Both the position numbers and the translations under genes were made by a program. The notes beneath the pieces are model-generated. The model ran no database searches. It was not told the origin of the DNA and was given only the letters and a program-made list of their open reading frames with translations. A stretch of DNA of 64,000 bases from Candidatus Omnitrophota bacterium. Lineage in GTDB: Bacteria; Omnitrophota; Gorgyraeia; 1-14-0-20-64-10. Shown here one piece after another: positions 22,638 to 47,677 of the stretch; within the stretch, counting starts at the first letter, position 1, and each line of letters begins with the position of its first letter. The stretch covers positions 314,603 through 378,602 of the forward strand of contig JAHFFE010000001.1 in NCBI GenBank assembly GCA_023248155.1, given 5' to 3'.

Positions 22638-22721
22638 GTCATCCTGAGATAACAACGGCATGTCATCCTGAGAGTGTACTTGCTCAGGATCTAAAGATGC
22701 TGAACAGAAAATTTTCAGCAT
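22638..22721 (+). repeat. Double-hairpin element copy 2. A half-site GTCATCCTGAGAT (22638-22650) precedes hairpin 1 ATCCTGAG-N10-CTCAGGAT (22665-22690) and hairpin 2 ATGCTGAA-N9-TTCAGCAT (22697-22721).
   Basis: Hairpin 1 is 27/30 identical to 4367-4396. The 3' arm of hairpin 2 contains the ATG (22720) of giant gene 1. Confidence 0.55.
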
Positions 22722-25700
22722 GACAAAAAATAAATCTATGAGAATAAAAAAATACAATCAAGTTTCCATCGCAACCTTTCTGCTAATCAGCCTGGTCGGG
22801 ACATCCTCCGTTCCGGCCGTCTCTCTTCCTATATATACGTTGCGCCCGCTTGCTTCCGCGCAAAATAAATCCGGTGCCGAAGAACTAACCAATGCCCTTA
22901 AGCGTCAAAATGATTCTAATGCCAATCAACCGCTTACCAACCAGGCCGTTTTAGACAAAGCGCAAGCTGGCCCATTGCTCAGCGAAACCAAAGAGTTGGC
23001 TGACGCCGCTGCGCGTGCCGCACTTGGCATTACTGCTGGCCAGGAGGAGAAGATTGAGCAATTTACTCGCGACAGAATTTTGTTGCGCTTGAACACCGGA
23101 AGGGAAATACCAACAGTTCCATACAAAACCGGGTTTTTGGCCGGTTTAGCCCAGGCCATTGCCGACCCAGGGCTTTCCGGTACCGCTGAGAGTTATTTAG
23201 TTCAGGAACTTCCACCAGGCCTTCGCGATGTGGTTCAGACAACGGCTGATCTAATTGGCAGAAATCGATTTACAAAGATGGACATGAAAGTGGCTCAAAC
23301 CGACACAGGGTCTCCGTTGACTGGTATTGCCGGCGAGACGATCATGGAAATTCTTTACAATGCGTTTTCACGGGGTTTTGGGGTAGGCCTCCCTCTGAGT
23401 GATAAAGGATATACGGCAATAGTCGTCAGCGGTACTCCCGGTTCTGATCTTTCGGTAGTATCCATTCCTGAGATTGGTCCCGATTTTCAAGACAGCCAGT
23501 TTGCCCGTTCATTAGCCAATCATGTTGTTGATCAACAGCCTACCGTTTTGGGAGTTGACCGGAGAGCAAAATACACTCTTTATGAAATAGGAACCGGCAA
23601 CACGGACTATGCGCTTCCAAAATATCTAGCGGGTGAGCAAGGTAGGAGAGGCTCATACCTTTTGCTTCAAATCGATCTGCCCATAAGTTTCGCCGGCGCG
23701 GAAGAGCGTGGGTGGTTTTCTCGCAATAAAGGTTTTTTTGGCATGGTTGCTTTGTCAGTGGCAGTCCTTGGATTTGCTGCTTACCAAATTGCCGGAGACC
23801 AGATTGCGGAACAATATTATCTTTATCGCCATCCTCCTACAGTAAAACAAGCGGCTGTTATGCCGTCCGGGTTGCATGTTCAGCTGCCTCCTGAAATGGC
23901 GGGTAAATATGCGGTGGCTTATCTGGAAACCGACCGTTTTTATCCGCAGGTCATAACACAGGTATCTGCTGACGGGACCGCTGCGTTTCATGTGGAAGTC
24001 CGGCCCCCTAACCGGCCCGGATGGATTGCCGCTCGCGGACGAGTGGTTGCGGTGGTTAATTCCAAGCAAGCGGCGAATGTAGCTTTCAGGGAAATAAAAG
24101 ACCCGTCTGCTTTGAATCGATTAAATCCGGCCGCTGTTTTAACAATTGATTCCGACGGGAAGGTGACTTCTGATAAGGATCCGTTGGGTAATCAAAACGC
24201 CGGGCAGGAAGAATCTGTTGCAACGGCCATTGATCAGCTTGTTTCGAACAGTTTTGGAGCAACCAATGTAATAACTACAGAAATGCTTTTCAATAATTCA
24301 AACGGAATGGTGACTTTCCAGAATTCAAGTTATTACGGGGATCAGACCTATGAATTAACGCTCCGTCCGTGGGTGAGTCTTTTAAGTGATCATCCAGAAG
24401 AGAACGTTGATTTCAGAGTTCGTGTCAGTCTGCAGAGAAAAGATTTCGCAGTTTTATCAGCTGCGGAACGAAAAGCCATGGCCAGCTACGAATTCAGAGT
24501 CAAAGGGTTTCCTTCTGCGGAGTTTCAATCCGGGTGGACAGCGCTTTCGCCTAATCCGCAACCCAAGAACTACTATGATCCTGGCGCGGGTCCTAACACC
24601 CCTCCAGGGTTTGTCATTCCTGCGGGTGCTGATATGGAAACGTGGATACCCATTCCGATAGTCTCGGACGCTTTCAGAGGAGAAAAGCTTGCCGAGTTGC
24701 AGCGACGCGACCCGGCTCAGAGAAGCATAACCATCCAGGTTAGGAAAGCCGGACAGGAAGAGACGGTTGTCGTTGGGCGGATACTTACTTTGCAGGCCGC
24801 GATGGAAAAACTGCGTACATTGTTAGCCGGTTCCAACCATAAACAAATCGTTTTTAATCCAGAGCAAAACGAAAGCTTAATAGAACGTACTGAAACCGCA
24901 TCAGTAAAAGATGTTTCGGATTTAACCGGGCCTGTTCGCCTCATTGGTCAATACTCGCCCAACTTTGATAATGGTCAGGGGGAAGGGCTGGTCGATATCC
25001 GTACCCGAAACGGCATCATTTATGTGAATCCTTTTCCATACAAAGCGGAAGAACTTTCTCTGAAAGTTACGCAGCTGTTTCGAAGAGGCGATATTTTGGT
25101 GGACCAAACTACGGGTGTCCGTCATTTTGAAGTTGCTGACAATCAAGGAAACGCTGTTGATGCTGTTCCTCTGGTTTCAATTATCAACGGATACACAGCT
25201 GATTCTAAGGTGACGCGTGTTCCTGCCGCGGATCTTCGGCTTCGCTACCGCGTGATTCGTGCCGTTGCCGCCGGGGCGGAAGAAAATGTTGAGGAATTGG
25301 CCGCTCGGTTAGGGGATGAGCCAATTAAGGTCGTGGAAACACTTCCTTCCTCTGCTCTTTTGACTGCCGATGCGAAAGCAGATGTGGTCCGTTACTTGCG
25401 GGGAGAGATTGAAGAGGCTGAGCTTCTTGGCATCTTGGACCGCTTAGGAATAGTGGAGATTCAGTCAGGCGGCAATTTCATGAACCAGGCGGAGCTCATT
25501 CGCGCCGCGGCGAAAGAGCGGGCCTTGGTGGAGAGAGCGATTGCGGAAGACCGTTTGGGAGAGTTTATTCCTATTGCCGATGGGAAATCCGCGGCTGTGG
25601 TGGAAGTGGATGTCGTCTCGAGTCTGCCAAAGGTTTATCTGCAGAATGGTTTGTCTTCGCCGGTTGCCGCGCCCGATGACATAGCGATCATTCCTTTAAG

Positions 25701-26025
25701 CGGCGATATTGCGGAAGTTTCTGATCAGTGGTTGAATGGGGCAGGTTCTGAGTCCGATCTGGTTATTTTGAATAACCAGCTGGATGGCGTGGCCGCTATG
25801 CCAGGTTCCTGGCTTCCGGCGGTAGCTCCAAGGCCAGCCGCGGTCCGCATGAGCCCGGTAACCTCGACGGAGCTTTTTTCAGGCGACGCCATTCAGGTGG
25901 GCCGCAACTTGCGCGCTATGGCGGCGCTCTCTCTGGCAGTGCACGGAGTACCGGATATGGATATAAACGGAATTACCTTTGTTGATCTGGCCGGAAAAAC
26001 CTATGCGGTTATTACCTCTGCCTAA
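22720..26025 (+). CDS. Giant secreted protein, AG-x-EE motif family member 1 (1101 aa)
   Basis: Signal peptide. Six AG(A/Q)EE-type motifs. A GDILVD...ADLRLR module shared with member 2. A conserved C-terminal module ending DLAGKTYAVITSA. Confidence 0.8.
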   Translation: MTKNKSMRIKKYNQVSIATFLLISLVGTSSVPAVSLPIYTLRPLASAQNKSGAEELTNALKRQNDSNANQPLTNQAVLDKAQAGPLLSETKELADAAARAALGITAGQEEKIEQFTRDRILLRLNTGREIPTVPYKTGFLAGLAQAIADPGLSGTAESYLVQELPPGLRDVVQTTADLIGRNRFTKMDMKVAQTDTGSPLTGIAGETIMEILYNAFSRGFGVGLPLSDKGYTAIVVSGTPGSDLSVVSIPEIGPDFQDSQFARSLANHVVDQQPTVLGVDRRAKYTLYEIGTGNTDYALPKYLAGEQGRRGSYLLLQIDLPISFAGAEERGWFSRNKGFFGMVALSVAVLGFAAYQIAGDQIAEQYYLYRHPPTVKQAAVMPSGLHVQLPPEMAGKYAVAYLETDRFYPQVITQVSADGTAAFHVEVRPPNRPGWIAARGRVVAVVNSKQAANVAFREIKDPSALNRLNPAAVLTIDSDGKVTSDKDPLGNQNAGQEESVATAIDQLVSNSFGATNVITTEMLFNNSNGMVTFQNSSYYGDQTYELTLRPWVSLLSDHPEENVDFRVRVSLQRKDFAVLSAAERKAMASYEFRVKGFPSAEFQSGWTALSPNPQPKNYYDPGAGPNTPPGFVIPAGADMETWIPIPIVSDAFRGEKLAELQRRDPAQRSITIQVRKAGQEETVVVGRILTLQAAMEKLRTLLAGSNHKQIVFNPEQNESLIERTETASVKDVSDLTGPVRLIGQYSPNFDNGQGEGLVDIRTRNGIIYVNPFPYKAEELSLKVTQLFRRGDILVDQTTGVRHFEVADNQGNAVDAVPLVSIINGYTADSKVTRVPAADLRLRYRVIRAVAAGAEENVEELAARLGDEPIKVVETLPSSALLTADAKADVVRYLRGEIEEAELLGILDRLGIVEIQSGGNFMNQAELIRAAAKERALVERAIAEDRLGEFIPIADGKSAAVVEVDVVSSLPKVYLQNGLSSPVAAPDDIAIIPLSGDIAEVSDQWLNGAGSESDLVILNNQLDGVAAMPGSWLPAVAPRPAAVRMSPVTSTELFSGDAIQVGRNLRAMAALSLAVHGVPDMDINGITFVDLAGKTYAVITSA

Positions 26026-26065
26026 AATCAATCGTTAGTAGTAGAAAACTTCGCCGTTATTTTTA

Positions 26066-26096
26066 TTGACAAAAATAACAACCCCAGCGCTATAAT
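26066..26096 (+). promoter_or_regulatory. Sigma-70 promoter for giant gene 2
   Basis: TTGACA-19 nt-TATAAT. Followed about 25 nt later by CAGCGGTCTTTTTTT, which resembles a block downstream of the member 3 promoter. Confidence 0.55.
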
Positions 26097-26215
26097 GGCA
26101 AATAACCTTGAATTTCGCAGCGGTCTTTTTTTGTCCGTCATTTTTTACAGATTTAGATAAGATCTGAGACAGCTTTTATGAACCCATATAAAAACTCGGC
26201 CAGATAAAGGAAAAA

Positions 26216-29200
26216 GTGATGCGGACAAATTTAAACCAGTTCCTGGCCGCCCTGCTTCTCGTTGGTCTCTCTTTCGCGAATATTTCTCCCGTCCCTCAGC
26301 TGTTCATGGTGAGTTTATCGAACCATACTCTGCGTGCCGTTGGTTTAGAGGAAGGCACCCAAAAGAATTCTTTATCTGACGCTTTAAAAAATAATGCCTC
26401 CGGATTAGAGGAAGCGGTTGTTTTGGACGCGTCGGTTCCTTATCAATATCCCTGGCGGACTGCCGAATTCGACGAGCTTTGGCCAAATGCCGATGATCGT
26501 GATCCCAAGCTGGAACGCTTTCAAAGATTGTTCAACCAGGATTTGGACGGCCATCCGGAAGGGGAGATTCAGCTCACATCGCCCAACGGAAACCCCGATG
26601 AGTTGGCCCGCTGGATTGCTGAAAACAATATGACTCCGCAGCGGGTTGCCGAAAGCATTGAATGGATCCATAAGATGCACCCCTACGATAAGGAACGGTT
26701 TATCTCTCTTCAGCAGTTGCCCAGCATTCAGGCGTTTCTTGCCGCTCATCCGGAAGCCCGTTTCAATTTAATCGGCGTCCGCGAAGATGAGAGCAAGGTC
26801 GGTTCCTTCAAAATCGGCCAGTATATGGATGAATATCTGCAGAAGATCCTCAAAGCCGGCCATCGAGGAGATGTAAATTTCCCGGGCGCCGTGATGTACT
26901 CCTCGGGAAACGCCATTCAGGGAGATGTCGAGACATTGGCCTGGCTCAAAGAGCAGGGGTTGGTTCCGCAAGATTTCAAGATCACAATGGTGGCAATGGC
27001 TTACCTGAAACCCAAAAAGCGGAAAATGATCGAGGATTTTAAAAAGCGGGGATTGGTTGACCGAATTGTTACCCCCGAAGAAATTGCCGCCGAGTATCTT
27101 GCCGATTCAGAGGGGGGCAGCGTACCGGTTCAGCATCAGGACTTGGCGGTTGATCCCGTGGCGTTGGATGACATCAATCAGGTTTTGAAACTTTTGGATT
27201 GGTGGTCGGAGAAACAGGGCCGGGCCCATATTTACGCTTCCAACAGCTTAAGCGCCGTCGTGGGCGGGGCCAGAATCTACTACGATATTAATCGGGCATT
27301 TACGCAGGATCGTGAATACCTGCAAGCGTTGTTGGGGGATGCCGCCGAAACTTTGCCGGCTCAGCCCGATGGTATTGTCATGCCTGCCGCGGGCGGCGGA
27401 CCGTTCGGGGGAATACCGTTTTGGGCGCGCCAGCTTGGGCATGCCACCAAAACCATCGGACCGATCCCCACCATCCGGACCGGCAGCATCGCGGAAGGTC
27501 TGGGCATTCAGATGATTCAGGAACTCGCGCGCAATCTGGCCCGTTTATTGGGAGTAAATCAGATGCAGCTTACCGAGGTATCTGAGCGGGCTATTCTAAA
27601 AGCGTTTGTGGAACTGCATGACGCCGGAATTGAAGTGGAGCCCAGCTCTGCCATCGCCTACGCGCAGGTGCTGTACCTGATGGAAAACAAACCTGAATTT
27701 TTCTCTCAATTTTTGGCTGAGAACGGCCGGCCGATGACGCTGGTGGCCATATTAACCGGGCGCAATTTTGAACCATCGGATGCCGCCTGGGCTTGGGCGA
27801 AGGTTCAAGAGCTTCGCCTGAAGGAGCCCCATGCCCTCAGAGCCGATCCAACCCAAAGGCAGGCGGCCGTTCCTCCGGCGAATGGGCTGCAGCAGGTTGT
27901 CGTTTTGAGTTCAGGCACCGAGCAGGCAATGGGCAGAGCGCTGCGCCAGGCGGTAATCGATTGGCGCGCGTCCCAGCCGGCAAATCTGAAACCAACCGTA
28001 ACGGCTGTCTACAATCCTCCCAAAGATCTGGATTGGCTTAAAAAGATAAAACCGGATGTCATTCTTGTGGCGGCTACTGCCGAAGAAGCCCAGCAGGATG
28101 GTTTACTAAGGAATGCCATCACAGTTCTTGGCGATGCCGGCGTTCTCATTCGTTATGTTCCTTTCCCCAGCAAGGTAGCAAGATCTTTGAATCCGCTGGC
28201 AAAATCTCTGCCAGGGAAGCTTCTAAAAATCGGCGAGCTGTTTCAGGGAGGGGATATTTTGGTGGATTCGACAACCTCCAAGCCCCGTTTTCGGGTAGTT
28301 GCCGACCAAGCAAACACCATCAGCGCTGTTTCTCTCCAACCAATTGATGAGCAGGGCAATTCCGCGGGGCCGGAAACCGCTGTCCCCGTCGCGGATCTAC
28401 GCCTGCGTTTTCAAGTGGTTCGCGCCGGCTTAGAGGAGCAATTGCTCACCGTTACGGTTCCTCCAAGCCAGCCGGTTTGGCTCACGGCGGCAGATGGAAT
28501 CCAATTGCTGGAACGGTTGCTGCAAGAAGGGGAGTCCCGCTCGATTTACTCTGTTAAGCACGGGGCTGATTTTCTTGTGCCTCGTTACAGAGCGGTAGTT
28601 TCAAAAGAGGGAGGTGTCATTAAAGTCCGAACAGTCGGTAAATTTTCGATGTCACTTGAGTTCGTCATGACGCGCGTCGAGGGTTATTTTATCGTGAAGC
28701 CGGATGGAAACATCTTCGTTATTGATGCCGAAGATGGAAACCAGAGAGCGAATATTTATTTGCGCAAGAATTTTTCGACTATTTCCGTTGATTCTCTCGC
28801 GCCTGCCGCTGTCGAGGGCTGGGTTCAGCGACCTTCCGCGGAAGAAGCGGCGGCCTATATCCGGGAGCTTGTTCCACAAGGCGTTTCTGCTGTTCAAATG
28901 GGAGACGCTGAACATTCTCCGGAATCTGACCGTTTGGTTGATGATCTCACTCAGTTTCAGGGGGGAGCTGGCAGCGGCCGGATTTTCTATTTGAGAAGGT
29001 CCAACCAAAATGTAGAGGTGTTGGCGATCACTGCGATGGATTTTGACGCCAGATCCATTGGGGAGTTCCATCAATTGCCGATGGGTGAGTTGTTGAAGAA
29101 GATCGCTCAGCTGGGAGCGAACTGGTTCGTCCAGGTCGGTTTTTCGAATTCGGCAGCGCGGGTATATGCGACAGACACCTCTGGTTTGCAGAGACTTTTG

Positions 29201-31267
29201 CGTGGATATCCCAATACGACGGGTTTCTACGCCCTGTCCCTTCGCGCAAATCAGACTGCTTTCGTGAGCAACAGCTCGAATCCCAATTCTTCCGGATTGG
29301 AGGAAGATTTTCGAGATGCTTTCTCGGATGGGATGGCCGCTCAGCATTATTTGGACCAATTGGCGGGTTTTGCCGATATTGTTTTATTGAATCAAACCCA
29401 AGAGGCTTTGGGTAGAGTCGACGCCCATTCAAGGGATTATCTGGATCCGAAGGGAATTTATCCTTCCACCAGAGAAATTATTCCCAAGTACGCTCAAGCC
29501 AATCCTGTCGAATTAGACAGTGCTCATCGCGAACGGTTGAAAGAATTTCTTTTTTCGGTTTGGGAGAACGAGCGCCGTATGCGGAACGAACCGCAAGGTT
29601 CTGCTCGAACAGGCAGGCCAGTGGTTGATGTGGAGTCAGCCATGCTTCCTGAACTCATAGAGCAGGGACGTGCTGCTCAGCGGCTGGCGTTGTCTGGCGG
29701 GCTGGAAGAGCGGGTGAATCTTTTGGTTATTCGGGATTCTAATGACGCGGCAACCAAACAAGCGCTGCTAGGTATCGTTCCTGGCTGGGCTAAAACAAAA
29801 GCTTCGCAGGAAATCGATGTGGTTTCTTACGGCACCCTGGATAAGGGGCTTGCCGCCTCGCCTAAGAAAGGCCGATGGAGCGGGATCCTGATGTTGCGGC
29901 ATGTTGCGACTGAAGCCGATGTCGATGAGATTGAGCGCCAGATTACCGGCCTTAAGCCCGTTTCGGATTCTGCGGCGATACCGGTTGCGCTGATCGTCTA
30001 CGCGTCGGACCAAAAAGTATACGAAAAACGGTTGCTGGGTTCGCTGCAACTCCTCAAAGGAAGCCAGGGTATCGTCACATTTTTTGTTCATCGTTTATGG
30101 CAAGACAAACCTGCTTCTCAGCCCGCCGTCGCGGATTCACCGGAACCCACAGCGAAACCGGCAGTGCCGCCGGCAGGAGTCTTCACGGGAGTTCTGGATC
30201 AATTGCTGGACTCCGCGGCTAAGTACGCTGTGGCTGTCGGTCTGGAAGAGCGGGGAGCGCTGCTTCCCGATGTTTTCTTTCGGCGTCCAGGGTTCCAGTT
30301 CCTTATGGAAATGGGAAGAGCAAAAATCCTGCCGGCGGATTTCGATGTCCGGGATAAATCTCTTCAGGTTCGAATCGGCCGGATCGTAGGCCGCTGGGGG
30401 TTCAGCCGTTGGCTGGAAGAACTCCCGCTGGCAAAGGTTCTTGAGAATAGCCCCAATGGGCACAATGACCTGGCCGCGGTGGAAGCGTTTATTGCAAGGG
30501 CACAAAATATTCCGCCGGATTATTTTGGGATAGCGGCAGGAACCACCCAGTGGTCGCCCAAGAAGACGCCTTCTTGGCCGGCGGTTCAGCCATTAGTGAT
30601 CGAGGCGGTAGCGGGTGCTCGTCAAAATAAAAATTTCGAATTACAGTACACCCCTGCTGCGGTAAGCGAATCGGATGTGACTGATCAAAGCGACGGTAAA
30701 ACCTACCATCATGTTGAAATAGTTTCGCCTCCGAAAATTCAGCTTCTTCCTGCCGCCGGGCTGGAGGAATGGACCGTTTCCGATCTGTTCTTGCGCGAAG
30801 TGGTTACCACGCACAATTTTTACACGCGATTTGCGCAAGAAGACGGTTCCCAGCTGATTGTGGTGCCGATGGGACAGAATAAAGTTAAGCCGGCGAATCT
30901 TTATTTGCAGGAGGGGCTTGAGAATCCCATTTCGCGCCTGGTTCCAAACCCTGTTCGTCTGGGAAGAGAAAAGGAGGACGTTCGGGGGCTCTTCCGCCAA
31001 AACCCCGCGGGTCCCAACGATGTCATTGTTCTCAACTCCGATATAGTGAGGGGTGATCCGTTGTCCTGGTTTTCAGCGGGCGGCGCGAATACTCAATATA
31101 AGGTGCGTATTTCACCGGCGTTAGCCATGAAATTCAACAATGATCTGGATACCCGATTCATGGAAGTGGTCGCGTTGGCCGCGCGGGTGGGTAATGGAAT
31201 GTTATTGCTGGACTACACGTATCAGGCGGTGGATGACCAGGTGTACTTGATCCTGCGCTCCGCGTAA
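26216..31267 (+). CDS. Giant secreted protein, AG-x-EE motif family member 2 (1683 aa). The N-terminal domain resembles a fold-type-II PLP enzyme.
   Basis: Seven GLEE motifs. A GSFKIG lysine motif, an AAGGGPFGG glycine loop and GIEVEPSSAIAYA recall threonine synthase/TrpB-family enzymes. The C-terminus ends YLILRSA. Confidence 0.8.
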   Translation: MMRTNLNQFLAALLLVGLSFANISPVPQLFMVSLSNHTLRAVGLEEGTQKNSLSDALKNNASGLEEAVVLDASVPYQYPWRTAEFDELWPNADDRDPKLERFQRLFNQDLDGHPEGEIQLTSPNGNPDELARWIAENNMTPQRVAESIEWIHKMHPYDKERFISLQQLPSIQAFLAAHPEARFNLIGVREDESKVGSFKIGQYMDEYLQKILKAGHRGDVNFPGAVMYSSGNAIQGDVETLAWLKEQGLVPQDFKITMVAMAYLKPKKRKMIEDFKKRGLVDRIVTPEEIAAEYLADSEGGSVPVQHQDLAVDPVALDDINQVLKLLDWWSEKQGRAHIYASNSLSAVVGGARIYYDINRAFTQDREYLQALLGDAAETLPAQPDGIVMPAAGGGPFGGIPFWARQLGHATKTIGPIPTIRTGSIAEGLGIQMIQELARNLARLLGVNQMQLTEVSERAILKAFVELHDAGIEVEPSSAIAYAQVLYLMENKPEFFSQFLAENGRPMTLVAILTGRNFEPSDAAWAWAKVQELRLKEPHALRADPTQRQAAVPPANGLQQVVVLSSGTEQAMGRALRQAVIDWRASQPANLKPTVTAVYNPPKDLDWLKKIKPDVILVAATAEEAQQDGLLRNAITVLGDAGVLIRYVPFPSKVARSLNPLAKSLPGKLLKIGELFQGGDILVDSTTSKPRFRVVADQANTISAVSLQPIDEQGNSAGPETAVPVADLRLRFQVVRAGLEEQLLTVTVPPSQPVWLTAADGIQLLERLLQEGESRSIYSVKHGADFLVPRYRAVVSKEGGVIKVRTVGKFSMSLEFVMTRVEGYFIVKPDGNIFVIDAEDGNQRANIYLRKNFSTISVDSLAPAAVEGWVQRPSAEEAAAYIRELVPQGVSAVQMGDAEHSPESDRLVDDLTQFQGGAGSGRIFYLRRSNQNVEVLAITAMDFDARSIGEFHQLPMGELLKKIAQLGANWFVQVGFSNSAARVYATDTSGLQRLLRGYPNTTGFYALSLRANQTAFVSNSSNPNSSGLEEDFRDAFSDGMAAQHYLDQLAGFADIVLLNQTQEALGRVDAHSRDYLDPKGIYPSTREIIPKYAQANPVELDSAHRERLKEFLFSVWENERRMRNEPQGSARTGRPVVDVESAMLPELIEQGRAAQRLALSGGLEERVNLLVIRDSNDAATKQALLGIVPGWAKTKASQEIDVVSYGTLDKGLAASPKKGRWSGILMLRHVATEADVDEIERQITGLKPVSDSAAIPVALIVYASDQKVYEKRLLGSLQLLKGSQGIVTFFVHRLWQDKPASQPAVADSPEPTAKPAVPPAGVFTGVLDQLLDSAAKYAVAVGLEERGALLPDVFFRRPGFQFLMEMGRAKILPADFDVRDKSLQVRIGRIVGRWGFSRWLEELPLAKVLENSPNGHNDLAAVEAFIARAQNIPPDYFGIAAGTTQWSPKKTPSWPAVQPLVIEAVAGARQNKNFELQYTPAAVSESDVTDQSDGKTYHHVEIVSPPKIQLLPAAGLEEWTVSDLFLREVVTTHNFYTRFAQEDGSQLIVVPMGQNKVKPANLYLQEGLENPISRLVPNPVRLGREKEDVRGLFRQNPAGPNDVIVLNSDIVRGDPLSWFSAGGANTQYKVRISPALAMKFNNDLDTRFMEVVALAARVGNGMLLLDYTYQAVDDQVYLILRSA

Positions 31268-31313
31268 AGGCCCATTGAAAATGTTAGTCGTAGAAAGTTT
31301 CATGATTTAAATG

Positions 31314-31343
31314 TTGACATTTTTGCACTTTCTCAGGTATAAT
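31314..31343 (+). promoter_or_regulatory. Sigma-70 promoter for giant genes 3-5
   Basis: TTGACA-18 nt-TATAAT. A weak hairpin plus GGCTCTTTTTT lies about 35 nt downstream. Confidence 0.6.
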
Positions 31344-31453
31344 TTTCACAATACGCTGGTTTTGTCTTCCAAGCCAGCGGCTCTTTTTTACCCTGCATTT
31401 TTACTTATTTTGGATAACTTAAACAAAGCAAACATTCGGGAGGAATACAAGTA

Positions 31454-40200: not shown

Positions 40201-42056
40201 TTTCTGAGGCTGGAATTTCTTTTCAGAGCAATCCCAATAATTCGTTGAGTGTTACCCTGTCGTCGAATAATTATTTAGTTGTTTCCCGTCTCCAGCCGGC
40301 CGCCGGCGCTGAGGAGAAACTGATACTTTCCCGTTCCGAACTGCTGGATCGTGTGGAGGCTTTAGCTCAGATACAACATACGGGAGGCGGGTATGCCATC
40401 GGCCGGGTGGGGTATCTTCGTGCTGGAGAGGTAGTGCCGATCGAGGTATCCCGGGCAGGCATAGACCAAGGGGAAATTCCGGGAATTATTCCTGCAATGA
40501 CGAATCGATTAATTGCTCGGATCGAATCGCTGCGAGATGGCCGACACGCTTTGCAAATTCAGAGTTCATCAAATGGCGGCCAATTTGCAGTAACTCCGCA
40601 CGGGCTTCAGGTTCAGAAATTTTGGGAGTTACAGCAGATTCACGCCGGATACCCGTTGGAATATTTATCAGATCCTTCCATATTACAGGGTAACAACAAG
40701 GTTGCCGTCACGCGCAATGGCCGCCCGGTTAATTTTGCCGATTATGAGCGGCTTCAGGATCAATTGGTGGGGGCGCCGGGACAAGCATTGCCAATGACCC
40801 TGCTGATCACCGCCCAAGGGGTTGAATTGGTTCCCGCTTATCTTGTTTCGAGTGGCCAGCCGGCAAAGGTTCAAGGTCTTTTTGAACTTGAGGTGGCCCC
40901 GGAATTTACAGCGCCTCCTTCAGGACAATTTCCCCTTATTAATGAAACCGTTTTTGTAGAGCGTTTAGCAGAGGTTCCGAATAATCCTTTTGATTTGGCG
41001 CTTGGGTTCGCTCCGGAAGCCCCCGTTCGTTTATTCCGCCTGCTGGATTCGCCGTTCTCTGTGGCAACGGATGGCAATCGTGTTGTTTATTTCTCCCCGG
41101 ATGCCGAGCCATTGGCGAGGGCCGTGGCGAAGGCGGGAAATATCTCGACAGTTCTCTCCGCGTCGAAAGATCTTAAATTGCGAATCAGAATTGAAACGCC
41201 TGATCAAACCCAATCGGGTGATAAGTTACTGGTATCGGTTCAAGAAGCTCGTGCCGGTGCGGAGGAAAACTGGAATAATCTGGCGCCGAATGAAAAACAT
41301 CCGGTTTTTGTCGGCCAGGCCGTGCAATGGATTTCCGCGGCGGGTGAGTCAGGGAAAGTGGCCGGCATCCGCGTGGGCAATGACCCAAGCCAGGAAGCCG
41401 TTCTGTTGGCGAATCAATTTTCTAACCCGATTGCGCTGGAGCGTCAGTTTAATTCGGTCGCGATGCAGGGGAGCGTTGGCTTGTTGTGGCGCCCTGCGGC
41501 GGGAACCGCTGTCGGCTCTGGAATGATCGCGCTGGAAATTTCTTCTCCGGAAGCCGGCGCCGAGGAAGGCGTCACGCGCCTTTCTGCGGAGGAATTGGTT
41601 GGCCGGGCAATGCTTTCGGATGAAGAGGGTGTCGTCCAGTTCTCTTCCGGAGACTTGGTTATTCCGATCAGCACTAATTTGCCGACTACCGGAACGCTGT
41701 ATCATCAGCCGGGGCTGGCACTGCCGAATATCGACGGATTGAATCAGGTTGTTATTGCCGGCAGCGCGGTCGATGTTCAGAAAATCTGGGATCAAACGCC
41801 TCCGATACCGGGTGATTTGGTCATGCTCAACAACGATACCGTTGGCGACGGGTACAAAGACTTTCTGCCGACTGTGTTGGTAGAGGGCGCTCTCTTTTTG
41901 CGTGTTAGTGCCGCAGCGTCGGCCAAGCTGACACCGGAACTGCTGGCCGGTATCCTTGCGGTTTCTCAGCAGCTAGTAGGGCAGGTACTGTTGATTAATG
42001 ATCTGGAATATGTCACCGTAGAAAATCAGACCTACGCGGTTCTGCGCTCGGCCTAA
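37242..42056 (+). CDS. Giant secreted protein, AG-x-EE motif family member 4 (1604 aa)
   Basis: The N-terminus is paralogous to member 3 (MRF..LR.IS..VL..FSLS...ALRA.G.EE...GN.GNF). Nine AG(A/Q)EE motifs. The C-terminus ends QTYAVLRSA. Confidence 0.8.
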   Translation: MRFNYLRTISAIVLTAFSLSAATPMPAWALRATGAEESATQPILARALQSGNKGNFVRGVDSRLVAAGQEENVHVLGIEGKPTNSREGLTAYDNQPDLQTAVRAYVQASSVLVTITSIQQRDGTTDEFLGKPFVFETYRFAPGKDPLDPKDGNWGGMTWQLRRFSIRLNGLSRVGSPLPNMSHTLNRFRLIETSPGQLVIEPVFDAALAPRLKTLLPDVALETIQGWLSKGQYAQILSLAESGANERTDTRNLTQIRNMLNAMLDVSSAAGAEERFEVSVRSTSDGTENFDRIELMSRSEETDRLANALGLIKGRSLLLIRQKAPTTATEAFPFFAVSDGAKVILLSGAGSDGAQLWRSYAEEKIKRSIVFSSMRSFRTLESPVNVQISSPLSIPQYDLLQVTISAGQEEKWSNPFMGPNRVNLMSGDYAAKWISQGVLAAKIASVAVHPKEGSPVTLSLNQVNTARKLLRQFKRDDWVNVSWAENGSARGEIRVDVRPVDVLSDGMPVPPVGEFTSVIGYLTITTTPYTAARAIAASAAEIASVETLISFTSDPGYWSGYGHASTDWNAVAEQHAKVYVAAGLASINPAILSAKVQFLANLEPLFLAGQEETYFYSPAGATLKSNDQTQPDLPIAVGDVFRIYLAQKRVKPDDRSDETYLLRLMENGQLALMERPPAGRTFSEMTENEDQFVQLAIGWDQAHQRGERVTINTLYGPVSISLNAGKTQLAFEHAFREENIEERIGSKVNIYPSSLYDLGFNRLIPAVGLPAVRDFKAAYRRFYKNQQNGDAAARLEAARVALVVLANTEDQTRFRAAYASFEKALLNELQTAPYTLVKGVPGFDKPIFAIDYVSHTQRQLVDELTAIRSLSNAAGAEETYRNYDSSGWHVTLPAGQAVAQPVTVATNPGDILLLQWAPQIPNQENRLFALVRVSDDGKEISVLDQLDSQFRLSSFYRAGVQGMTGAEVPGDVIRSVEWGPAASEARISEAGISFQSNPNNSLSVTLSSNNYLVVSRLQPAAGAEEKLILSRSELLDRVEALAQIQHTGGGYAIGRVGYLRAGEVVPIEVSRAGIDQGEIPGIIPAMTNRLIARIESLRDGRHALQIQSSSNGGQFAVTPHGLQVQKFWELQQIHAGYPLEYLSDPSILQGNNKVAVTRNGRPVNFADYERLQDQLVGAPGQALPMTLLITAQGVELVPAYLVSSGQPAKVQGLFELEVAPEFTAPPSGQFPLINETVFVERLAEVPNNPFDLALGFAPEAPVRLFRLLDSPFSVATDGNRVVYFSPDAEPLARAVAKAGNISTVLSASKDLKLRIRIETPDQTQSGDKLLVSVQEARAGAEENWNNLAPNEKHPVFVGQAVQWISAAGESGKVAGIRVGNDPSQEAVLLANQFSNPIALERQFNSVAMQGSVGLLWRPAAGTAVGSGMIALEISSPEAGAEEGVTRLSAEELVGRAMLSDEEGVVQFSSGDLVIPISTNLPTTGTLYHQPGLALPNIDGLNQVVIAGSAVDVQKIWDQTPPIPGDLVMLNNDTVGDGYKDFLPTVLVEGALFLRVSAAASAKLTPELLAGILAVSQQLVGQVLLINDLEYVTVENQTYAVLRSA

Positions 42057-42060
42057 AACT

Positions 42061-45000
42061 ATGAAAAAAACAGACTGGTTTAAAATAAGCGGTTTTCTGG
42101 GGCTGGCGCTGCTGCTGGCTGTTCCCGCGCCCGTATACGCTCTGCGCGGGGCGGGTGCCGAAGAAAGCTTGGAAAAAACGGATTTAACGCGGGCACTCTC
42201 CCGAGCGGGCAACCGCGGTTACTTGAAGCGTGCCGCCGGATTGGAGGAAACACCCTGGACAATCATCGGCCGGGGAGAGGGCACGCCGGTGGCGATGGCG
42301 CTGGATGATTCCGGTGACGCGCTGGTTCTGTCCCGGATCGCGGCCGGCGAACTGCGGCTTCAAAGAATAAGCCCGGCTGGAAAAGCAGAACCCATAACGC
42401 CGGTTCCGTCTTTGGCGGTTCCAATGCCGCCGGGTTCCGGCGGAGATCCGGCCAATCCGTCCGCTGCTTCTGTTTTCGCCATTCTTCCGTTCCGCGATCA
42501 GGTTCTTGTTACCGATGGCGGCCAGCAATTTTATCCGATAGAGATTTCATCCTTAGGGCAAACGGTTCCCGACCTCCAATCGGCGGCTAAGCCGGTTCCG
42601 CTGGCTAACGTAAGCCGGATCGATCAAATGATTGTCCGGCCTTCCGACGGAATGCTGATTATCGTGGATAAGCAGGGAGACGATGCCGCTTCAAAATCCA
42701 ATTCCATTGTTCGGTTATTTGATGTAAAGCAAATGCCGCCTGTTGTTAGAGAAGCCGTTGGGGTGGGAGAACCCGTCGTGACTGCACCGGCAGTAGCCAG
42801 AAACCGTCTTTACCTGGCCCAATCATTCCCGTTGAGCCCCGCTGCGGCAGTGCCGGCGGGTACCGGGACGCAGACTCAGCGAGAAATTCGCATCCGCGGG
42901 TTTAACATCTCTAACGGCGGGGATGGGAGCGTCGAAACGCTGAGAATTCAGGGACCCAAAACCTTCGTTCGGTCGGATGTGGCCGGTTTGGCGGCTGGCT
43001 TAGTGGATGGAAAACCATTTTTGTTTTCGCTGGAGAGCCGCCAACGCAAGGGTCCAGGAGTTGAAGCCGCCCAGCCGCTTCGTCTGGCGGTTTATTCTCT
43101 CGAGAATCAGGCGCAGGTTGGTTTCTTTGATCTGCCGGCCAATGTTCGGCAGATTACTTACGATTCAAAGAACAGCCAGGTACTGTTGGCCGCGGGCGGC
43201 GCGCCCGAATCCAATTCTTATCAAATCACCGCGGCGCCCGTCGCACAACTCATCCCGGCCGTTCAGCAACGGCCTGTTTCTGGATCTGGTTTAGAGGAAG
43301 CCCCTCAGCCTCCACCCGCCCAGCGCACGCAAGGGATTCATTCTCGGCTTGCCCGGATCTTCATCGAAGGAGTGCTTGCCCGTTATACGCCTTCAGGCAA
43401 TGAGAATTCTGATTTCACCGTCAAATATTTCGGAGAAACAGAAGATGAATCCTTGCTGTTTAATCCGGAGCTTTTCCTTGGGGTTGTAAGAAAATCCCAG
43501 GTTTCGCACCATGTTTGGGTCAATGTAAATCCAGCCACAAAAATCATCGAGGTTCATCCCGTTCAAATCCGCGAAGAATTGAAAAAACCGGTGATTCTTC
43601 TGGATTCTCAAAATACAGTGAACTTTATTCTCAACGCGGCTCTTCCAGAGCCGGTTCTTGGGGTCGCCTATCGGGAAGCAGGGCATCTTCAGGTTTTATC
43701 GGGGGCCTTGTTGGGCAACGCGAGTTTGCTCCCCCGGATTCTTCAGATGGTTAACATCAGTCAAACTATTCTCTTTTTGAAGGAACCCTTTGAAATTCCT
43801 GCGAATTCAGACGCAGAACAGTCTGCCCAAAAAGGATTCTTGCTGCGGCTGGCTTATGTGCCATCTCAAAGGTCTTTGCGTGCGGTCGCGTGGAGAACCA
43901 TTGATCAGTTTGTGCAGGAGTTTTCCGGTTTTGCAAAGGCAGGCCAGGCATCGGTTCTTTATTATCATACGCCTGCCGGGGTTTATCTTCTGGAAGGACC
44001 GGAGAATCTGCAGAATGCCGACTTTCTTCGTGCCGCGGCCGAACAGGTGGCCAGCGGTTCCTACGTGCTTGCCTCAAAGGAGGGCGCTGACGGAAAAGAA
44101 TTTCATTTGTACGCGCCTGAGTTTGCAGGTTTGGAGGAAACGGCCGTAGCAGAAAACGCATTGCCCTCAATATCCAGCCGTCCGGTTATTTCCTCGCCAT
44201 CCGGATTCTCGACGACAGTAGCTGGGCCTGTTTTTCCCGCTTATTCGGCGGTGATCTCCGCGGCAGGCAATGGTCCTTCCGCGTCAGCGAATTCCGTTTC
44301 TTCTTTGGCGGTTTCCGTGAGCAGTCCTCTGAATGCTCCGGCGGTTATTGAGCCGGTTACCGGCGAGCGGGCACCGGAACCGGTGGTTTTCTCGACGGTG
44401 GAAGAGGTGATTGCTTATTTGAACGCTTTGCCGGATGATCAGCCGGTTATTGTGGGCGGTGTCGAGATTCCTTCGCTAAGAGACACTCTTTTTCCGGTGA
44501 AATTAGACGAACTGGCCCGCAACAATCCGGGCCAGAATTTCTTAATCCGGCCCGCCGGCCCCGGCGCCGTTTTGCGCGTTGACCTGCAGGCGCCGGTCCG
44601 CACGCTCAGCGCGACGGAATTGTTTGGTGATACTACCGCAGTTTCGGTCCGATTTGACCTGGCCGAAGCTTCCGATGCCATGATTGCCGCGCAAATCGCC
44701 CAGGCCAATAAGCTGGGCCAGCCGGTACAGATTTCCCGTTCCGGCGAGTTTGCGGCTGTCTTTGAAAAAACTCCAACACTTTCGCCATCGGTCCTTTACA
44801 TACAAGATGATTTGGATCTGCCGCAAGATATGTCGGAATCCGATGGAACGGTTGATGTTCGCCGGATTCCGGCCGATCCCGAGCTGGCCCAGGAATTCTG
44901 GGAGCTGCAGCAGACCCTCTTACCCGGCTCCGTCGTGATTTTAAACAGCAACCTGCTGGCCAATCAGCGGCTCGATCCGCGCCAGTGGCTGCCCGCGAAT

Positions 45001-45177
45001 CTCGATCCGCAGATTCCGGTTTTAATCATGGGAGAAATGGCCGCGCAAAACTGGAATAAAGATTCGCTCGCTTACCTGGTGACGCTGGCTGCTCATTCCC
45101 GCGGAATTTTGTTTATCCGCCAGATTACTTATCCGACGGTAAACGAACGGGAGTTTGTCGCTATCCGGTTCGTCTAA
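42061..45177 (+). CDS. Giant secreted protein, AG-x-EE motif family member 5 (1038 aa)
   Basis: Signal peptide plus an ALRGAGAEE box. Four motifs. A FWELQQ module shared with member 4. The conserved C-terminal module begins VVILNSNLL. Confidence 0.8.
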   Translation: MKKTDWFKISGFLGLALLLAVPAPVYALRGAGAEESLEKTDLTRALSRAGNRGYLKRAAGLEETPWTIIGRGEGTPVAMALDDSGDALVLSRIAAGELRLQRISPAGKAEPITPVPSLAVPMPPGSGGDPANPSAASVFAILPFRDQVLVTDGGQQFYPIEISSLGQTVPDLQSAAKPVPLANVSRIDQMIVRPSDGMLIIVDKQGDDAASKSNSIVRLFDVKQMPPVVREAVGVGEPVVTAPAVARNRLYLAQSFPLSPAAAVPAGTGTQTQREIRIRGFNISNGGDGSVETLRIQGPKTFVRSDVAGLAAGLVDGKPFLFSLESRQRKGPGVEAAQPLRLAVYSLENQAQVGFFDLPANVRQITYDSKNSQVLLAAGGAPESNSYQITAAPVAQLIPAVQQRPVSGSGLEEAPQPPPAQRTQGIHSRLARIFIEGVLARYTPSGNENSDFTVKYFGETEDESLLFNPELFLGVVRKSQVSHHVWVNVNPATKIIEVHPVQIREELKKPVILLDSQNTVNFILNAALPEPVLGVAYREAGHLQVLSGALLGNASLLPRILQMVNISQTILFLKEPFEIPANSDAEQSAQKGFLLRLAYVPSQRSLRAVAWRTIDQFVQEFSGFAKAGQASVLYYHTPAGVYLLEGPENLQNADFLRAAAEQVASGSYVLASKEGADGKEFHLYAPEFAGLEETAVAENALPSISSRPVISSPSGFSTTVAGPVFPAYSAVISAAGNGPSASANSVSSLAVSVSSPLNAPAVIEPVTGERAPEPVVFSTVEEVIAYLNALPDDQPVIVGGVEIPSLRDTLFPVKLDELARNNPGQNFLIRPAGPGAVLRVDLQAPVRTLSATELFGDTTAVSVRFDLAEASDAMIAAQIAQANKLGQPVQISRSGEFAAVFEKTPTLSPSVLYIQDDLDLPQDMSESDGTVDVRRIPADPELAQEFWELQQTLLPGSVVILNSNLLANQRLDPRQWLPANLDPQIPVLIMGEMAAQNWNKDSLAYLVTLAAHSRGILFIRQITYPTVNEREFVAIRFV

Positions 45178-45274
45178 TCATCCTCGCAGTGGTTAATCAA
45201 AATATAGTCTTTGATATTCTGTATTGATTTTTAATAAGCTCATTGGGTATAGTTCGTATATAGACACAAAAACA

Positions 45275-47677
45275 ATGAAAATCCAGGTTCGTAAGATAAT
45301 TCTTTCAGTGATGGCGATGGCGCTTTTAGTCTCTCAGGCGTCACCGGCCATGGCGTTGCGTGCCGCGCAGCCTGCCAATGCAAATGAGAAAGCCGCGCTG
45401 GGTACTGCGTTAACCGAAGGGGCCGGCGCCGAAGAAAAAATGAACGCTGTGGTTTGGATCGGCCCGGACGGTATTAGCACCGGTTTGTTCAGCCGTAGAG
45501 ACGGCATTTTTGGCGATGATAGAAATCAGCCGGCATCGATGGGTTTGGAAGAGATCCCGGTACTGATTCCGGGGGTCGGTTTAACCCCCGCACAGCGGTT
45601 TTGGCAGGCCGCTCGGTCGCAGGTGATAAACGCGGTTGATTATTTTGGGTTGAGACCAAGTCAGGTCGATCGGGTGATTATCGCGCGGCCCGAAGCGCTG
45701 CCCGCCGGGTTTGAGGAAATGGGAGATCTGCAGTTGGGAATGGAGTTGGAATTGAGATTTTATTTCGGACGCCCGATTTCGGTTCAGATTATGGGCCAGC
45801 CGCCCACAGTTTCAGCGTCGGCCCCTGTCATACAGCGGTTCGCCGCGGTTGTGGCGTTGGCCGGCCAGGAAGAAAAACCCGCCTACCGGATTCCAAAAGA
45901 CAGACAGGGCAGCGGCCCGGTGGCCATTGTGGCGAAAGTGGGCGGCACAAAATTTCATGCGACGTTGGCCGATGCCAAAGGGTTATGGGAAGAAACCGAT
46001 GTTGTTGCCGCGGCTGTTCCTTTTGACGGAGCTAATCAAGACCAGATTTTTAATCATTGGGCAGACCAAATTGTTCAGACAGCCCGCCGCGCGAATGTTT
46101 CTGCAGACCGAGTTATTCAAATCCATATATCGTGGCCCGGTTATTTTGATGAAGAAGGAAATTTGACCCAGCCTCAGGAAAATATTCGCGGTATTCCGGC
46201 CGGTGTAAATATGGCGAAGCAACTTCAGGCACGCGTCAACCAACTTTTGTCGAGGCATCCCAGTCTCGGTGAAATTCAGGTGATCGGCGTGCACGACGGC
46301 ACCGGCCATGCCCTGGGTGAGCTCAGTCCGTTCGGGGCTTTCCCCGGTGAGAAATCATTGCATTTGGTTGGTCCGGGCACCGGTATTGCCAATCGCACTA
46401 TGGTTCGCAGGAACCCGTTCTTGGGTGGTCCTGAAGTTGATCTTGTAGCGAATGAAGCTCCGAATATGTTGGCCTGGGATATTGACAGGAAAGATTATCA
46501 ATTGGTGATTTTTGATACACGCGGGTATCCTCTGTCGCGGGCAACTTTAGCAAATGGCGATCCGAATCCCTATTATGGGCGGCAGAGTATGGAAGACCGG
46601 ACGGCCGGTCCCGGCATCGCTCGATATGTGGTGGAGTTGTTGCGCGCCAATTTGACTGCGCCTGCCGCAATCGATTTTTTGGATGCTCTGTCAATTGAAT
46701 TGGCGGATAAAATTCGAACGAATACGGAATTAAAGAGAAACGATCTCGATCAGGTCATGCACACTACTGGAATTTTAGCGACAAGAGTGAACCCGAATCT
46801 CATAGCACTGACGGCTGTGGCCGAGCGAGCCTATGAGCTGGGTGTTGGAACGGCGGTAACGATCGTGGAATATCATCGCCACTATGGAGAAGATCAGTAC
46901 CCTTATCCGAAGCATATTGTGCTTGCCGGCGGCGTCAGTACAATTGGTGAATTGTACGCGACCAATTTTAAGGCCGGTTTGCGGGCAAGAATTGAGCGGT
47001 ACCGGACGGAAGCGAATGCTCCTGCTGATATGCCGGATCCGCAAGAATTTGTTAACCGTGTTGGAACCTCCACGATTCTGGATGGCGACCGGGAACTGCT
47101 GGCCGGGTTGCTGACGGCAGACCAGATTGCCGCACATCAGAAGTTGCTGGAGAGCGTTACTCCTGTTGCTTCCTTAAATTGGTTGAGTCAGTTGACCGAG
47201 CACTGGAATGCCGGCACTCCGTCCCAGGCACAGTCCGATCGGCGCGGATTGATTTTGGATGCTTCAAAAAATCCGAAGGTGGCGCGCATTGCGCAAGCGA
47301 TGGCAATTTTAATGCGGCAGGAAAACAATCCATTTGGAGTGGAATTTCGATTAGTGATTTTCGAGGATCAGCGTCAGCCTCTGTTGGATGAGTTGCGACA
47401 GATTAATTCCGAAGCCGCGTCCATTTTGGAAAGCCGGATTATTTCTTATGCCGAAACCAATGATTATGATGAAGCTCGTCTTTTGGCACGGCAGCAATTA
47501 GCCACCCTTTTTGGGTACTCTAATCCCGACGAGATGCCGAATACTGTTTATGGTGTCATCACCGATGTAACGCCACGGATGGCGCAGGAATTAAACGCTT
47601 TCTTCGTGGCCGGCGGTTTGCAATTCCTCACTTCCGACGCAATCACTCGCCTCGAAGCTCTCTTCACCTCCGCATAA
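45275..47677 (+). CDS. Secreted protein, AG-x-EE motif family member 6 (about 800 aa) with a ROK/ASKHA sugar-kinase-like central domain
   Basis: The start is inferred at MKIQVRKIILSVMAMALLVSQASPAMALRAA; the ORF-track start at 45224 adds 17 non-signal residues. Four motifs. IVAKVGGTKFHATLADAKG and VIGVHDGTGHALGE resemble ROK phosphate/adenosine motifs. Confidence 0.7.
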   Translation: MKIQVRKIILSVMAMALLVSQASPAMALRAAQPANANEKAALGTALTEGAGAEEKMNAVVWIGPDGISTGLFSRRDGIFGDDRNQPASMGLEEIPVLIPGVGLTPAQRFWQAARSQVINAVDYFGLRPSQVDRVIIARPEALPAGFEEMGDLQLGMELELRFYFGRPISVQIMGQPPTVSASAPVIQRFAAVVALAGQEEKPAYRIPKDRQGSGPVAIVAKVGGTKFHATLADAKGLWEETDVVAAAVPFDGANQDQIFNHWADQIVQTARRANVSADRVIQIHISWPGYFDEEGNLTQPQENIRGIPAGVNMAKQLQARVNQLLSRHPSLGEIQVIGVHDGTGHALGELSPFGAFPGEKSLHLVGPGTGIANRTMVRRNPFLGGPEVDLVANEAPNMLAWDIDRKDYQLVIFDTRGYPLSRATLANGDPNPYYGRQSMEDRTAGPGIARYVVELLRANLTAPAAIDFLDALSIELADKIRTNTELKRNDLDQVMHTTGILATRVNPNLIALTAVAERAYELGVGTAVTIVEYHRHYGEDQYPYPKHIVLAGGVSTIGELYATNFKAGLRARIERYRTEANAPADMPDPQEFVNRVGTSTILDGDRELLAGLLTADQIAAHQKLLESVTPVASLNWLSQLTEHWNAGTPSQAQSDRRGLILDASKNPKVARIAQAMAILMRQENNPFGVEFRLVIFEDQRQPLLDELRQINSEAASILESRIISYAETNDYDEARLLARQQLATLFGYSNPDEMPNTVYGVITDVTPRMAQELNAFFVAGGLQFLTSDAITRLEALFTSA

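Follow-up and report, generated by a model that had tools for sequence, protein, structure and literature searches.

Bacteria of the Omnitrophota encode long 'multi-enzyme metabolic' proteins that are tiled with enzyme domains, often begin with signal peptides and are poorly conserved (bioRxiv 10.64898/2026.06.07.730766), and these, together with the giant genes that West-Roberts and colleagues described (2023; bioRxiv 10.1101/2023.11.21.568195), are the closest described objects to the genes that are the subject of this study. Cleavage of Omnitrophota giant proteins has already been proposed in this literature, and in one of the papers the cleavage points are called unknown. Long and giant proteins of this phylum are an open puzzle, with enzyme domains standing behind export signals and cleavage suspected. 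Here we analyse a 64,000-nucleotide stretch of contig JAHFFE010000001.1 from a Candidatus Omnitrophota bacterium (assembly GCA_023248155.1; 'the window', to which all nucleotide positions refer), in which six consecutive + strand genes, G1 to G6 (22720-47677), encode predicted exported proteins that are punctuated by the pentapeptide A-G-x-E-E.

The products of this array share with the long Omnitrophota proteins the phylum, the domain repertoire (ROK kinase, receiver, and enzymes of sugar and central metabolism such as aldolases and isomerases), the signal peptides and the poor conservation, and the hppA gene 1.1 kb upstream, which is 83-87% identical to that of Omnitrophota metagenome-assembled genomes (MAGs; loci L004-L010), places the host in the phylum to which the long multi-enzyme class belongs. 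They are, however, much shorter, at 0.8-1.9 kaa (817-1923 aa for the six, up to 3.9 kaa in relatives) against 10-147 kaa, and fall below the threshold of at least 10,000 aa applied in the long-protein catalogue. Unlike the Archaeovorin/Dockerin-type giants, they carry no Dockerin or TSP3 repeats, no N-terminal C39 or S8 peptidase and no SecA-like domain (Pfam, E <= 0.01), nor do they have a multi-transmembrane (TM) architecture or the C-terminal TM segment that anchors those giants. Term searches of both papers returned no mention of a junction motif, a leader or a conserved C-terminal domain; a literature search on 'AGLEE' gave noise only, and the motif is not described in what was retrieved on Omnitrophota in combination with polyproteins, cleavage or linkers. 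An earlier, first-pass annotation of this DNA had not recognised the architecture from any described family; long multi-enzyme Omnitrophota proteins with proposed, unmapped cleavage had, however, already been published. What may be new here, no description having been found, is the motif, the leader and the C-terminal domain; the general class is known.

The gingipains and HagA of Porphyromonas, cargo of the type IX secretion system (T9SS), combine a Sec signal, a pro-region, modules delimited by short specific protease sites and a C-terminal domain needed for handling; paralogs within one genome share modules, and the cargo itself carries the protease domain that acts on the Arg/Lys sites. 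The array proteins resemble this architecture in their Sec signal, pro-region-like leader, separated modules, C-terminal domain and sharing of modules within one genome, but no protease module was found in them. In T9SS cargo the C-terminal domain is a beta-sandwich for which Pfam and TIGR have models; theirs is modelled as alpha/beta with a flavodoxin-like core and has no Por_Secre_tail/TIGR04183 match. MARTX toxins are likewise large secreted chains whose modules are freed at short linker sites and shuffled between strains; they carry RTX repeats, leave the cell by type I secretion without a Sec signal and are cut after Leu by an internal C80 protease. The array proteins share the chain of shuffled modules, whereas Pfam finds neither the C80 domain nor RTX repeats in them. 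They also differ from autotransporters (type V secretion), in that the modelled C-terminal domain is no barrel but five helices and a mixed sheet, without a Pfam match, and from substrates of sortase, exosortase and rhombosortase, in that their C-termini are folded, soluble and end in -SA with no terminal hydrophobic helix. C39 leaders are cut after GG, GA or AG by a C39 ABC transporter whose gene lies close by, and have no Sec signal; the array proteins, in contrast to such double-glycine substrates, bear Sec-type signals, and neither C39 nor an ABC exporter turned up in the window or the arrays.

Results

Recurrence and selection of the pentapeptide

The six products, 8,166 aa in all, contain 37 copies of G-x-E-E (6+7+7+9+4+4 from G1 to G6), exactly the number that the first-pass annotation had put at about 37. 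In 1,000 composition-preserving shuffles of the pooled sequence the expectation was 2.3 +/- 1.5 copies and the maximum 10, so that the frequency is not what composition would give, and the description of the motif as specific and heavily recurrent is borne out. Gly is preceded by Ala in 27 of the 37 copies and by Ser in 5, the residue one position further back is mostly small, and the x position is occupied by Leu (16), Ala (13), Gln (7) or Phe (1). This x residue is protein-specific, being Leu in all seven copies of G2 and in none of those of G1 and G4 (permutation p ~1e-4). From copy to copy, Gly, Leu and Glu are encoded by freely varying synonymous codons, so that conservation acts on the peptide, and a DNA-level repeat is ruled out as the origin of the motif. 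Rfam and transfer RNA scans of the window gave no matches.

Elsewhere in the window there is a single additional in-frame + strand copy, at nt 2650 in the open reading frame (ORF) 1-3105, and no motif enrichment is seen in the remaining ORFs of the window or in those of 80 related loci. The wider family (37 proteins, 56,162 aa) holds 188 G-x-E-E with the consensus A-A-G-L-E-E, and its variants are coherent within lineages: GLES in P0032, GAEE and GVEE in P0027 and P0029, GLEG and GLEQ in P0017, and AAG[T/M/V]E[Q/E] in L005 (labels in P and L denote related proteins and loci). Homologs of the C-terminal domain retain the motif along with their domains, some of them as GLES, GVEE or G[TMV]EQ.

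Motif copies at module boundaries

The aldolase module of G3 (32531-33322, + strand; aa 360-623) is flanked by AGLEE (nt 32516-32530) and AGAEE (nt 33323-33337). Its matches to the KHG/KDPG aldolase family in Pfam (PF01081; E = 1.5e-21, 77 bits against a cutoff of 27.8), to TIGR01182 (1.8e-26) and to PDB chains (7.9e-15) start 4-8 residues past AGLEE(355-359), and its last helix extends into AGAEE(624-628); aligned to stand-alone enzymes, the module begins about 4 residues past the former copy and ends at the latter. It keeps 10 of 10 columns that are invariant among 27 stand-alone aldolases of 200-220 aa, among them those of the Schiff-base Lys and catalytic Glu, which together with the profile match assigns it to the family. 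Its scores stay under the NCBIfam equivalog cutoffs, which marks it as divergent within the family; it is a whole and probably competent enzyme.

In an AlphaFold2 (AF2) model of G3 340-760 the three motifs (residues 355, 624 and 748) lie in coil between secondary-structure elements: the first has a short helix before it and the initial aldolase helix after it, the second is immediately behind the last aldolase helix at a predicted local distance difference test score (pLDDT) of ~50, and the third is behind a low-confidence alpha/beta module. The residues ahead of the C-terminal domain are also of low pLDDT when modelled. Among relatives, P0020 contains a complete formate-tetrahydrofolate ligase (FTHFS; profile positions 11-542 of 556) between the motifs at G862 and G1406, and HAD, DHDPS, receiver and ROK modules start immediately after motifs. 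The enzymes met in these relatives include transaldolase with transketolase, FTHFS, fructose bisphosphatases, malate synthase, and DHDPS with a receiver and mannitol dehydrogenase. Enzyme boundaries, AF2 models and the shuffling breakpoints described below thus confirm what had been proposed at first sight, that the motif sits at module junctions, and we are highly confident that A-G-x-E-E is a module-junction motif under selection, acting at the level of the protein.

Shuffling of modules

The six genes had been called clearly paralogous. Pairwise BLAST finds only terminal and internal modules in common, which makes that wording too strong: a signal-peptide leader and the motif are present in all six and a C-terminal domain in five, while the bodies are unrelated mosaics. 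The GDILVD...ADLRLR module noted in G1 and G2 was recovered, at 42% identity over 89 aa. Judged by their sequences, then, the six proteins are mosaics of shuffled modules and not simple paralogs. Exchange is seen most directly in relatives. In P0012 the last modules of G2 are permuted, their order being [1162-1515][1027-1162][C-terminal domain] where G2 itself has [1027-1162][1162-1515][C-terminal domain], with breakpoints that coincide with motifs; P0019 has the G4 module aa 271-407 fused to G3-type tail modules; P0021 contains the G3 module 235-356; and the match of G6 222-817 to L084_12405 starts just behind a motif of the latter. Overall, 15 of 19 internal homology endpoints on G1-G6, gathered post hoc, lie no more than 8 residues from a motif, where ~10% would be expected (binomial p ~1e-12). 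A free module order fits independently acting units.

The motif positions are themselves homologous between orthologs and are conserved although their flanks have diverged. P0010, the ortholog of G5 (81% identity pairwise, 78% by BLAST), has all four motifs unchanged, and P0012 retains 5 of 5 positions of G2.

Leader and C-terminal domains

Each of the six N-termini combines a basic n-region with a hydrophobic core (Kyte-Doolittle 1.8-2.3 over 15 aa) and an A-x-A site, in agreement with the signal peptides predicted earlier, and from these features we infer that the array proteins are exported via Sec-type signal peptides. The signal-peptidase site reads P-x-[F/Y/W]-A-L-R or similar in each, and the first motif copy comes after it, followed by a short amphipathic L-x-x-A-L segment and a second copy. 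The first-pass annotation made the motif the first element after every signal peptide, which held for five of the six; it is found 10-25 residues deeper in the chain in G1 and G6. The N-terminal block that it described as common to all six is found by BLAST in G3, G4 and G5 (~88 aa), and the looser pattern SP-A-L-R...G-x-E-E is what all six have in common.

An internal signal of the twin-arginine translocation (Tat) type, RRxFL with a hydrophobic stretch and AxA, stands straight after a motif in P0026 and P0021 (aa ~58-90 in both) and in P0029 (aa ~345-375), which suggests that at least that module is natively extracytoplasmic. G1 has a possible TM helix at aa 339-357 (23734-23790), straight after junction 3. 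Both the Tat-type signals and this TM-like helix suggest that whole genes with their own targeting signals have been captured as modules.

The type 1 C-terminal domain, of ~155 aa, is detected in G1-G5 by a hidden Markov model (HMM; E = 1e-8 to 1e-78, 1e-49 for G1); BLAST links the block in G1, G2 and G4, and the profile additionally detects it in G3 and G5. G6 has no match to this HMM and only the terminal -TSA in common, so that the C-terminal module thought to be shared by all six stands for five of them. The G4 copy (41589-42053, + strand) was modelled with AF2 as an alpha/beta domain of five helices and a mixed sheet (pLDDT 89.6, predicted template modelling score 0.82), with the preceding motif disordered and a weak, generic similarity to flavodoxin/CheY-like folds. 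We considered the domain as an autoprotease and rejected this, given the lack of a conserved nucleophile and the merely generic CheY-like fold. Neither the domain nor the leader has a Pfam, NCBIfam, PADLOC or PHROGs match, and the early remark that the architecture was not recognised holds in this sense. All C-terminal domains contain a motif-like Y-L-Q-x-G-L-x-x-P segment.

The type 2 C-terminus of G6 occurs also in L084_12405 and L086_13905. A shared origin of the three C-terminal domain types is unsupported (hhalign probability 0.2%). The chain ends in -SA in 16 of 32 complete family proteins, in -AA in 4 and in -QA in 3, and -SA ends occur in G1, G2, G4, G6 and ORF 1-3105, across three unrelated-looking C-terminal types. 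This end may serve as a C-terminal recognition signal, e.g. for a PDZ-type protease.

A rare family in a variable slot

An exhaustive HMMER search of 1.84 billion representative proteins with the C-terminal-domain profile gave 34 matches, 2 of them spurious. In the remaining 32, which include the window's own G2-G4, the domain is always at the extreme C-terminus, and every full-length member has a signal peptide, an A-L-R/K site and multiple motifs. A word-index search of 5.8 billion proteins with G4 found nothing beyond G4 itself and one with the C-terminal domain profile almost nothing, so that the exhaustive search was needed to find the family. Of two metagenome scans with C-terminal-domain alignments, one was empty and the other gave a single extra locus, L090. 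Both L090 and L088 are single-gene members in unrelated genomic contexts that keep the motif.

The array lies between housekeeping genes, tig, clpP, serA, purA and hppA upstream and ROK, peptidoglycan (PG)-binding, OmpA, uppS, dxr, ispG and infB downstream; within the slot itself the order is hppA, small exported protein, array, PG-binding, OmpA, uppS. The closest ~60 loci by hppA are all from Omnitrophota or from mislabelled PVC MAGs. In L004-L010, L084 and L086/87 the same slot holds large motif-rich signal-peptide proteins (9+4 motifs in L004, 11 in L010, 7 in L008 and 6 in L009), which cannot be aligned to G1-G6 except for the C-terminal domain of one, and more distant Omnitrophota have the same backbone genes with the array absent. 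The G+C content of the island is 0.49-0.53, against 0.55-0.58 in the flanks. Occupation of the slot in close relatives, unalignable proteins, array-less distant genomes and lower G+C content together point to a clade-specific hypervariable insertion, and on genomic comparison the array reads as a clade-specific, fast-evolving island between hppA and the PG-binding/OmpA/uppS genes. An origin from a defence system or a phage was discarded, PADLOC and PHROGs giving no matches.

Directly downstream of hppA, 21608-22459 (+ strand) encodes a conserved exported protein of ~280 aa with 'GVYWEGEEEVF' and an H-x-H motif; its frame opens with a signal-peptide-like start followed by STAGAEQ, and has no ATG, GTG or TTG upstream of nt 21896. 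We rejected this product as a partner or protease of the array because Omnitrophota that lack the array have it at the corresponding position and it matches no family, Pfam model or PDB entry. At the other edge, next to G6, the stand-alone ROK gene 48107-49273 lacks a signal peptide and is 38% identical over its full length to a ROK module within a signal-peptide polyprotein of the sister genome L084 (12405-17438), which lacks a stand-alone ROK there, a pattern that suggests gene fusion or fission at the array edge.

Layout of the array

The coordinates first reported for the six + strand genes agree with the ORFs. G1 (22720-26025, 1101 aa) consists of a signal peptide, six A/S-G-[A/Q]-E-E junctions (motifs starting at nt 22870, 23035, 23692, 24199, 24748 and 25270) and a type 1 C-terminal domain (aa 934-1101) ending in ITSA, and has no Pfam or NCBIfam match. 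In G2 (26216-31267, 1683 aa) the signal peptide is followed by seven G-L-E-E junctions, all with Leu (nt 26339, 26399, 28424, 29291, 29696, 30236 and 30755), and by a type 1 domain (aa 1524-1683) ending in LRSA; its aa 377-485 resemble a pyridoxal phosphate (PLP) enzyme (PALP, E = 3.5e-8, slightly below the Pfam cutoff) and aa 658-743 form a module in common with G1. G3 (31454-37225, 1923 aa) has a signal peptide and leader, seven junctions (nt 31544, 31643, 32153, 32516, 33323, 33695 and 34196) and a type 1 domain (aa 1786-1923) ending in VQA; besides the aldolase it contains a receiver-like module (aa 629-747) and a transaldolase-like region (aa 1182-1457).

G4 (37242-42056, 1604 aa) shares a homologous signal peptide and leader with G3, and continues with nine G-[A/Q]-E-E junctions, none with Leu (nt 37338, 37440, 38049, 38457, 39063, 39861, 40302, 41253 and 41553), and a type 1 domain (aa 1450-1604) ending in LRSA; no recognisable domains were found in its body. 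G5 (42061-45177, 1038 aa) has a signal peptide and leader, four junctions (nt 42151, 42235, 43285 and 44125) and a type 1 domain (aa 884-1038) ending in IRFV. G6 (45224-47677, 817 aa, with the true start likely at Met18) has a signal peptide, four junctions (nt 45422, 45539, 45704 and 45860), a ROK/ASKHA kinase-like module (aa 233-579) that matches the neighbouring ROK gene at E = 1e-10, and a type 2 C-terminal domain (aa 666-817) ending in FTSA. Pfam content is accordingly two matches in G3, one weak match in G2, a ROK-like module in G6 and none in G1, G4 and G5. A seventh family member, absent from the first-pass annotation, is ORF 1-3105 (+ strand), truncated by the window edge: a GT5/GT4 glycogen-synthase-like body is followed by a single AGAEE (nt 2650-2664) and a ~145-aa C-terminal domain (type 4) ending in LQSA, and its C-terminus is 45% identical to that of the syntenic giant protein L004_13003.

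G3-G6 are tightly spaced, with gaps of 4-46 bp. Upstream of G1 lies a promoter-like site, TTGACA-17-GATAGT (22497-22525, + strand), a match to consensus only, and the G2-G3 spacer holds a perfect sigma-70 consensus, TTGACA-18-TATAAT (31314-31343, + strand), with a hairpin and T-run (31354-31389) downstream of it. The G1 upstream region also contains two copies, 24 nt apart, of the 13-nt direct repeat TGTCATCCTGAGA (22637-22673), adjoined by an 18-nt inverted repeat (22546-22584); in a different intergenic region, at 4368-4378, GTCATCCTGAG occurs for the third time. All credible genes of the window are on the + strand, and GC skew is positive across it.

Discussion

We tentatively favour the reading of the motif as a proteolytic processing site and of the array products as polyproteins, at a probability that we judge to be close to, though short of, an even chance. 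Each chain would be exported by a Sec signal peptide ending in P-x-[F/Y/W]-A | L-[R/K], and would then present a ~30-aa leader between two A-G-x-E-E copies. Its middle would be a string of self-contained modules with one pentapeptide between neighbours, comprising KDPG aldolase, transaldolase, PLP enzyme, ROK-like kinase, and receiver-like or unknown folds, and it would close with a terminal domain, in five of the six genes the ~155-aa alpha/beta domain, and a chain end -[R/T]-S-A. A dedicated endopeptidase would recognise the pentapeptide and cut the exported chain into its modules, the C-terminal domain serving secretion, handling or assembly and not catalysis. Cleavage is favoured by the single copy at each boundary, by modules that are autonomous, in some cases complete enzymes, and free in their order, by the bracketed leader, by motif variants that differ between lineages and by a Tat-exported module straight after a copy; the lineage-coherent variants suggest co-evolution with a reader. 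The small Ala-Gly at the putative scissile position recalls the vaccinia I7L protease, which cuts at A-G|X, the C39 site and the S41 protease CtpA/Prc, which cuts pre-D1 at LDLA|(A/S)xE; for CtpA the likeness extends to the Glu two residues past the cut and to docking on a small C-terminal residue. We take this as a lead only; no such protease was seen.

Several observations weigh against cleavage at the motif. Neither the window (save the housekeeping ClpP and an RseP-like gene) nor five related loci yielded a peptidase, ligase or transpeptidase, no peptidase domain turned up in the six proteins or the related arrays, and no Cys, His or Ser is conserved in the type 1 C-terminal domain. One sub-lineage (P0023, P0024, P0030, P0031, P0037 and L090) carries a copy (GAGLEEVLQVW) within the folded C-terminal domain, and the motif has been lost with the domains kept at G3 916 relative to P0013 and at G3 356 relative to P0021. 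Motifs do not stand at all domain boundaries; the transaldolase and transketolase of P0026 are contiguous. Linkers are very short, often 1-2 residues from E-E to the next beta-strand, and the first motif is 3-6 residues past the predicted signal-peptidase site, where a cut would free only a pentapeptide. Export itself is predicted from the N-terminal sequence features described above, and ATP-, coenzyme A- or thiamine pyrophosphate-dependent enzymes are hard to rationalise outside the cytoplasm.

Some of these points would suit a motif that is never cut but acts as a structural seam, its Gly stopping one helix and its Glu-Glu capping the next element, so that swappable folds are insulated from each other in intact surface scaffolds. 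The position of the motif in coil exactly between secondary-structure elements, the minimal linkers, the shuffling of modules at the motif, the copy tolerated within the C-terminal domain of one lineage and the failure to find a protease all agree with such an adapter. A passive linker, however, needs no invariant G, E and E across unalignable bodies, and the copy after the signal peptide, which has no domain before it, the leader bracketed by two copies and the lineage- and protein-specific variants would be left unexplained, so that we consider an uncleaved adapter somewhat unlikely. The pentapeptide might also be bound, by a chaperone, a secretion component, an envelope anchor or a transpeptidase, for export competence, attachment or cross-linking, and the -SA end and the C-terminal domain might belong to the same recognition system. 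The first copy does adjoin the signal-peptidase site with the conserved amphipathic L-x-x-A-L segment behind it, half of the complete proteins end in -SA across three C-terminal types without detectable homology, and the pairing of an N-terminal signal peptide with a conserved C-terminal domain parallels cargo of two-step secretion, e.g. T9SS substrates. Yet no partner was identified, the C-terminal fold is unlike known secretion C-terminal domains, and a strict single copy at each boundary suits a separator better than a binding site that is repeated; we regard docking or sorting as unlikely.

That the motif is a functionless scar, the trace of a DNA microhomology (GCC GGN YTN GAR GAR) used in cassette shuffling, would account for module breakpoints at the motif and for a locus so variable that array proteins are unalignable next to a well-conserved hppA. 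The third positions and the Leu, Ala and Gln codons are free, however, leaving fixed only ~10 of 15 nucleotides, exactly those that the amino acids require, and the motif is kept in the single-gene members in unrelated contexts, L088 and L090, which makes a scar highly improbable. An artefact of Ala/Glu-rich composition could appeal to Ala and Glu contents that are only moderate (11% and 6%), and is refuted by the shuffles and by the unenriched ORFs of the window and of the 80 related loci; we give it practically no weight.

If the motif is indeed a proteolytic processing site, a wider picture is conceivable, though we hold it as doubtful: a bacterial polyprotein system in which ultra-small, probably host-dependent Omnitrophota export strings of whole metabolic enzymes and binding modules, cut at A-G-x-E-E, maybe guided by the -SA end and the C-terminal domain, with the released modules acting outside the cell or in the host. 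Whole-module exchange at the motif in a hypervariable slot is a pattern typical of host-interaction loci. The motif defines a very rare family, of about 32 members in 1.84 billion representative proteins, with a new C-terminal domain, and provides a concrete, testable rule for module boundaries, also for splitting sequences before structure prediction, as well as a way to trace the reader enzyme through phyletic profiling. Should cleavage occur at the motif, it would supply the missing cleavage-point rule for dissecting the giant proteins of the Omnitrophota.

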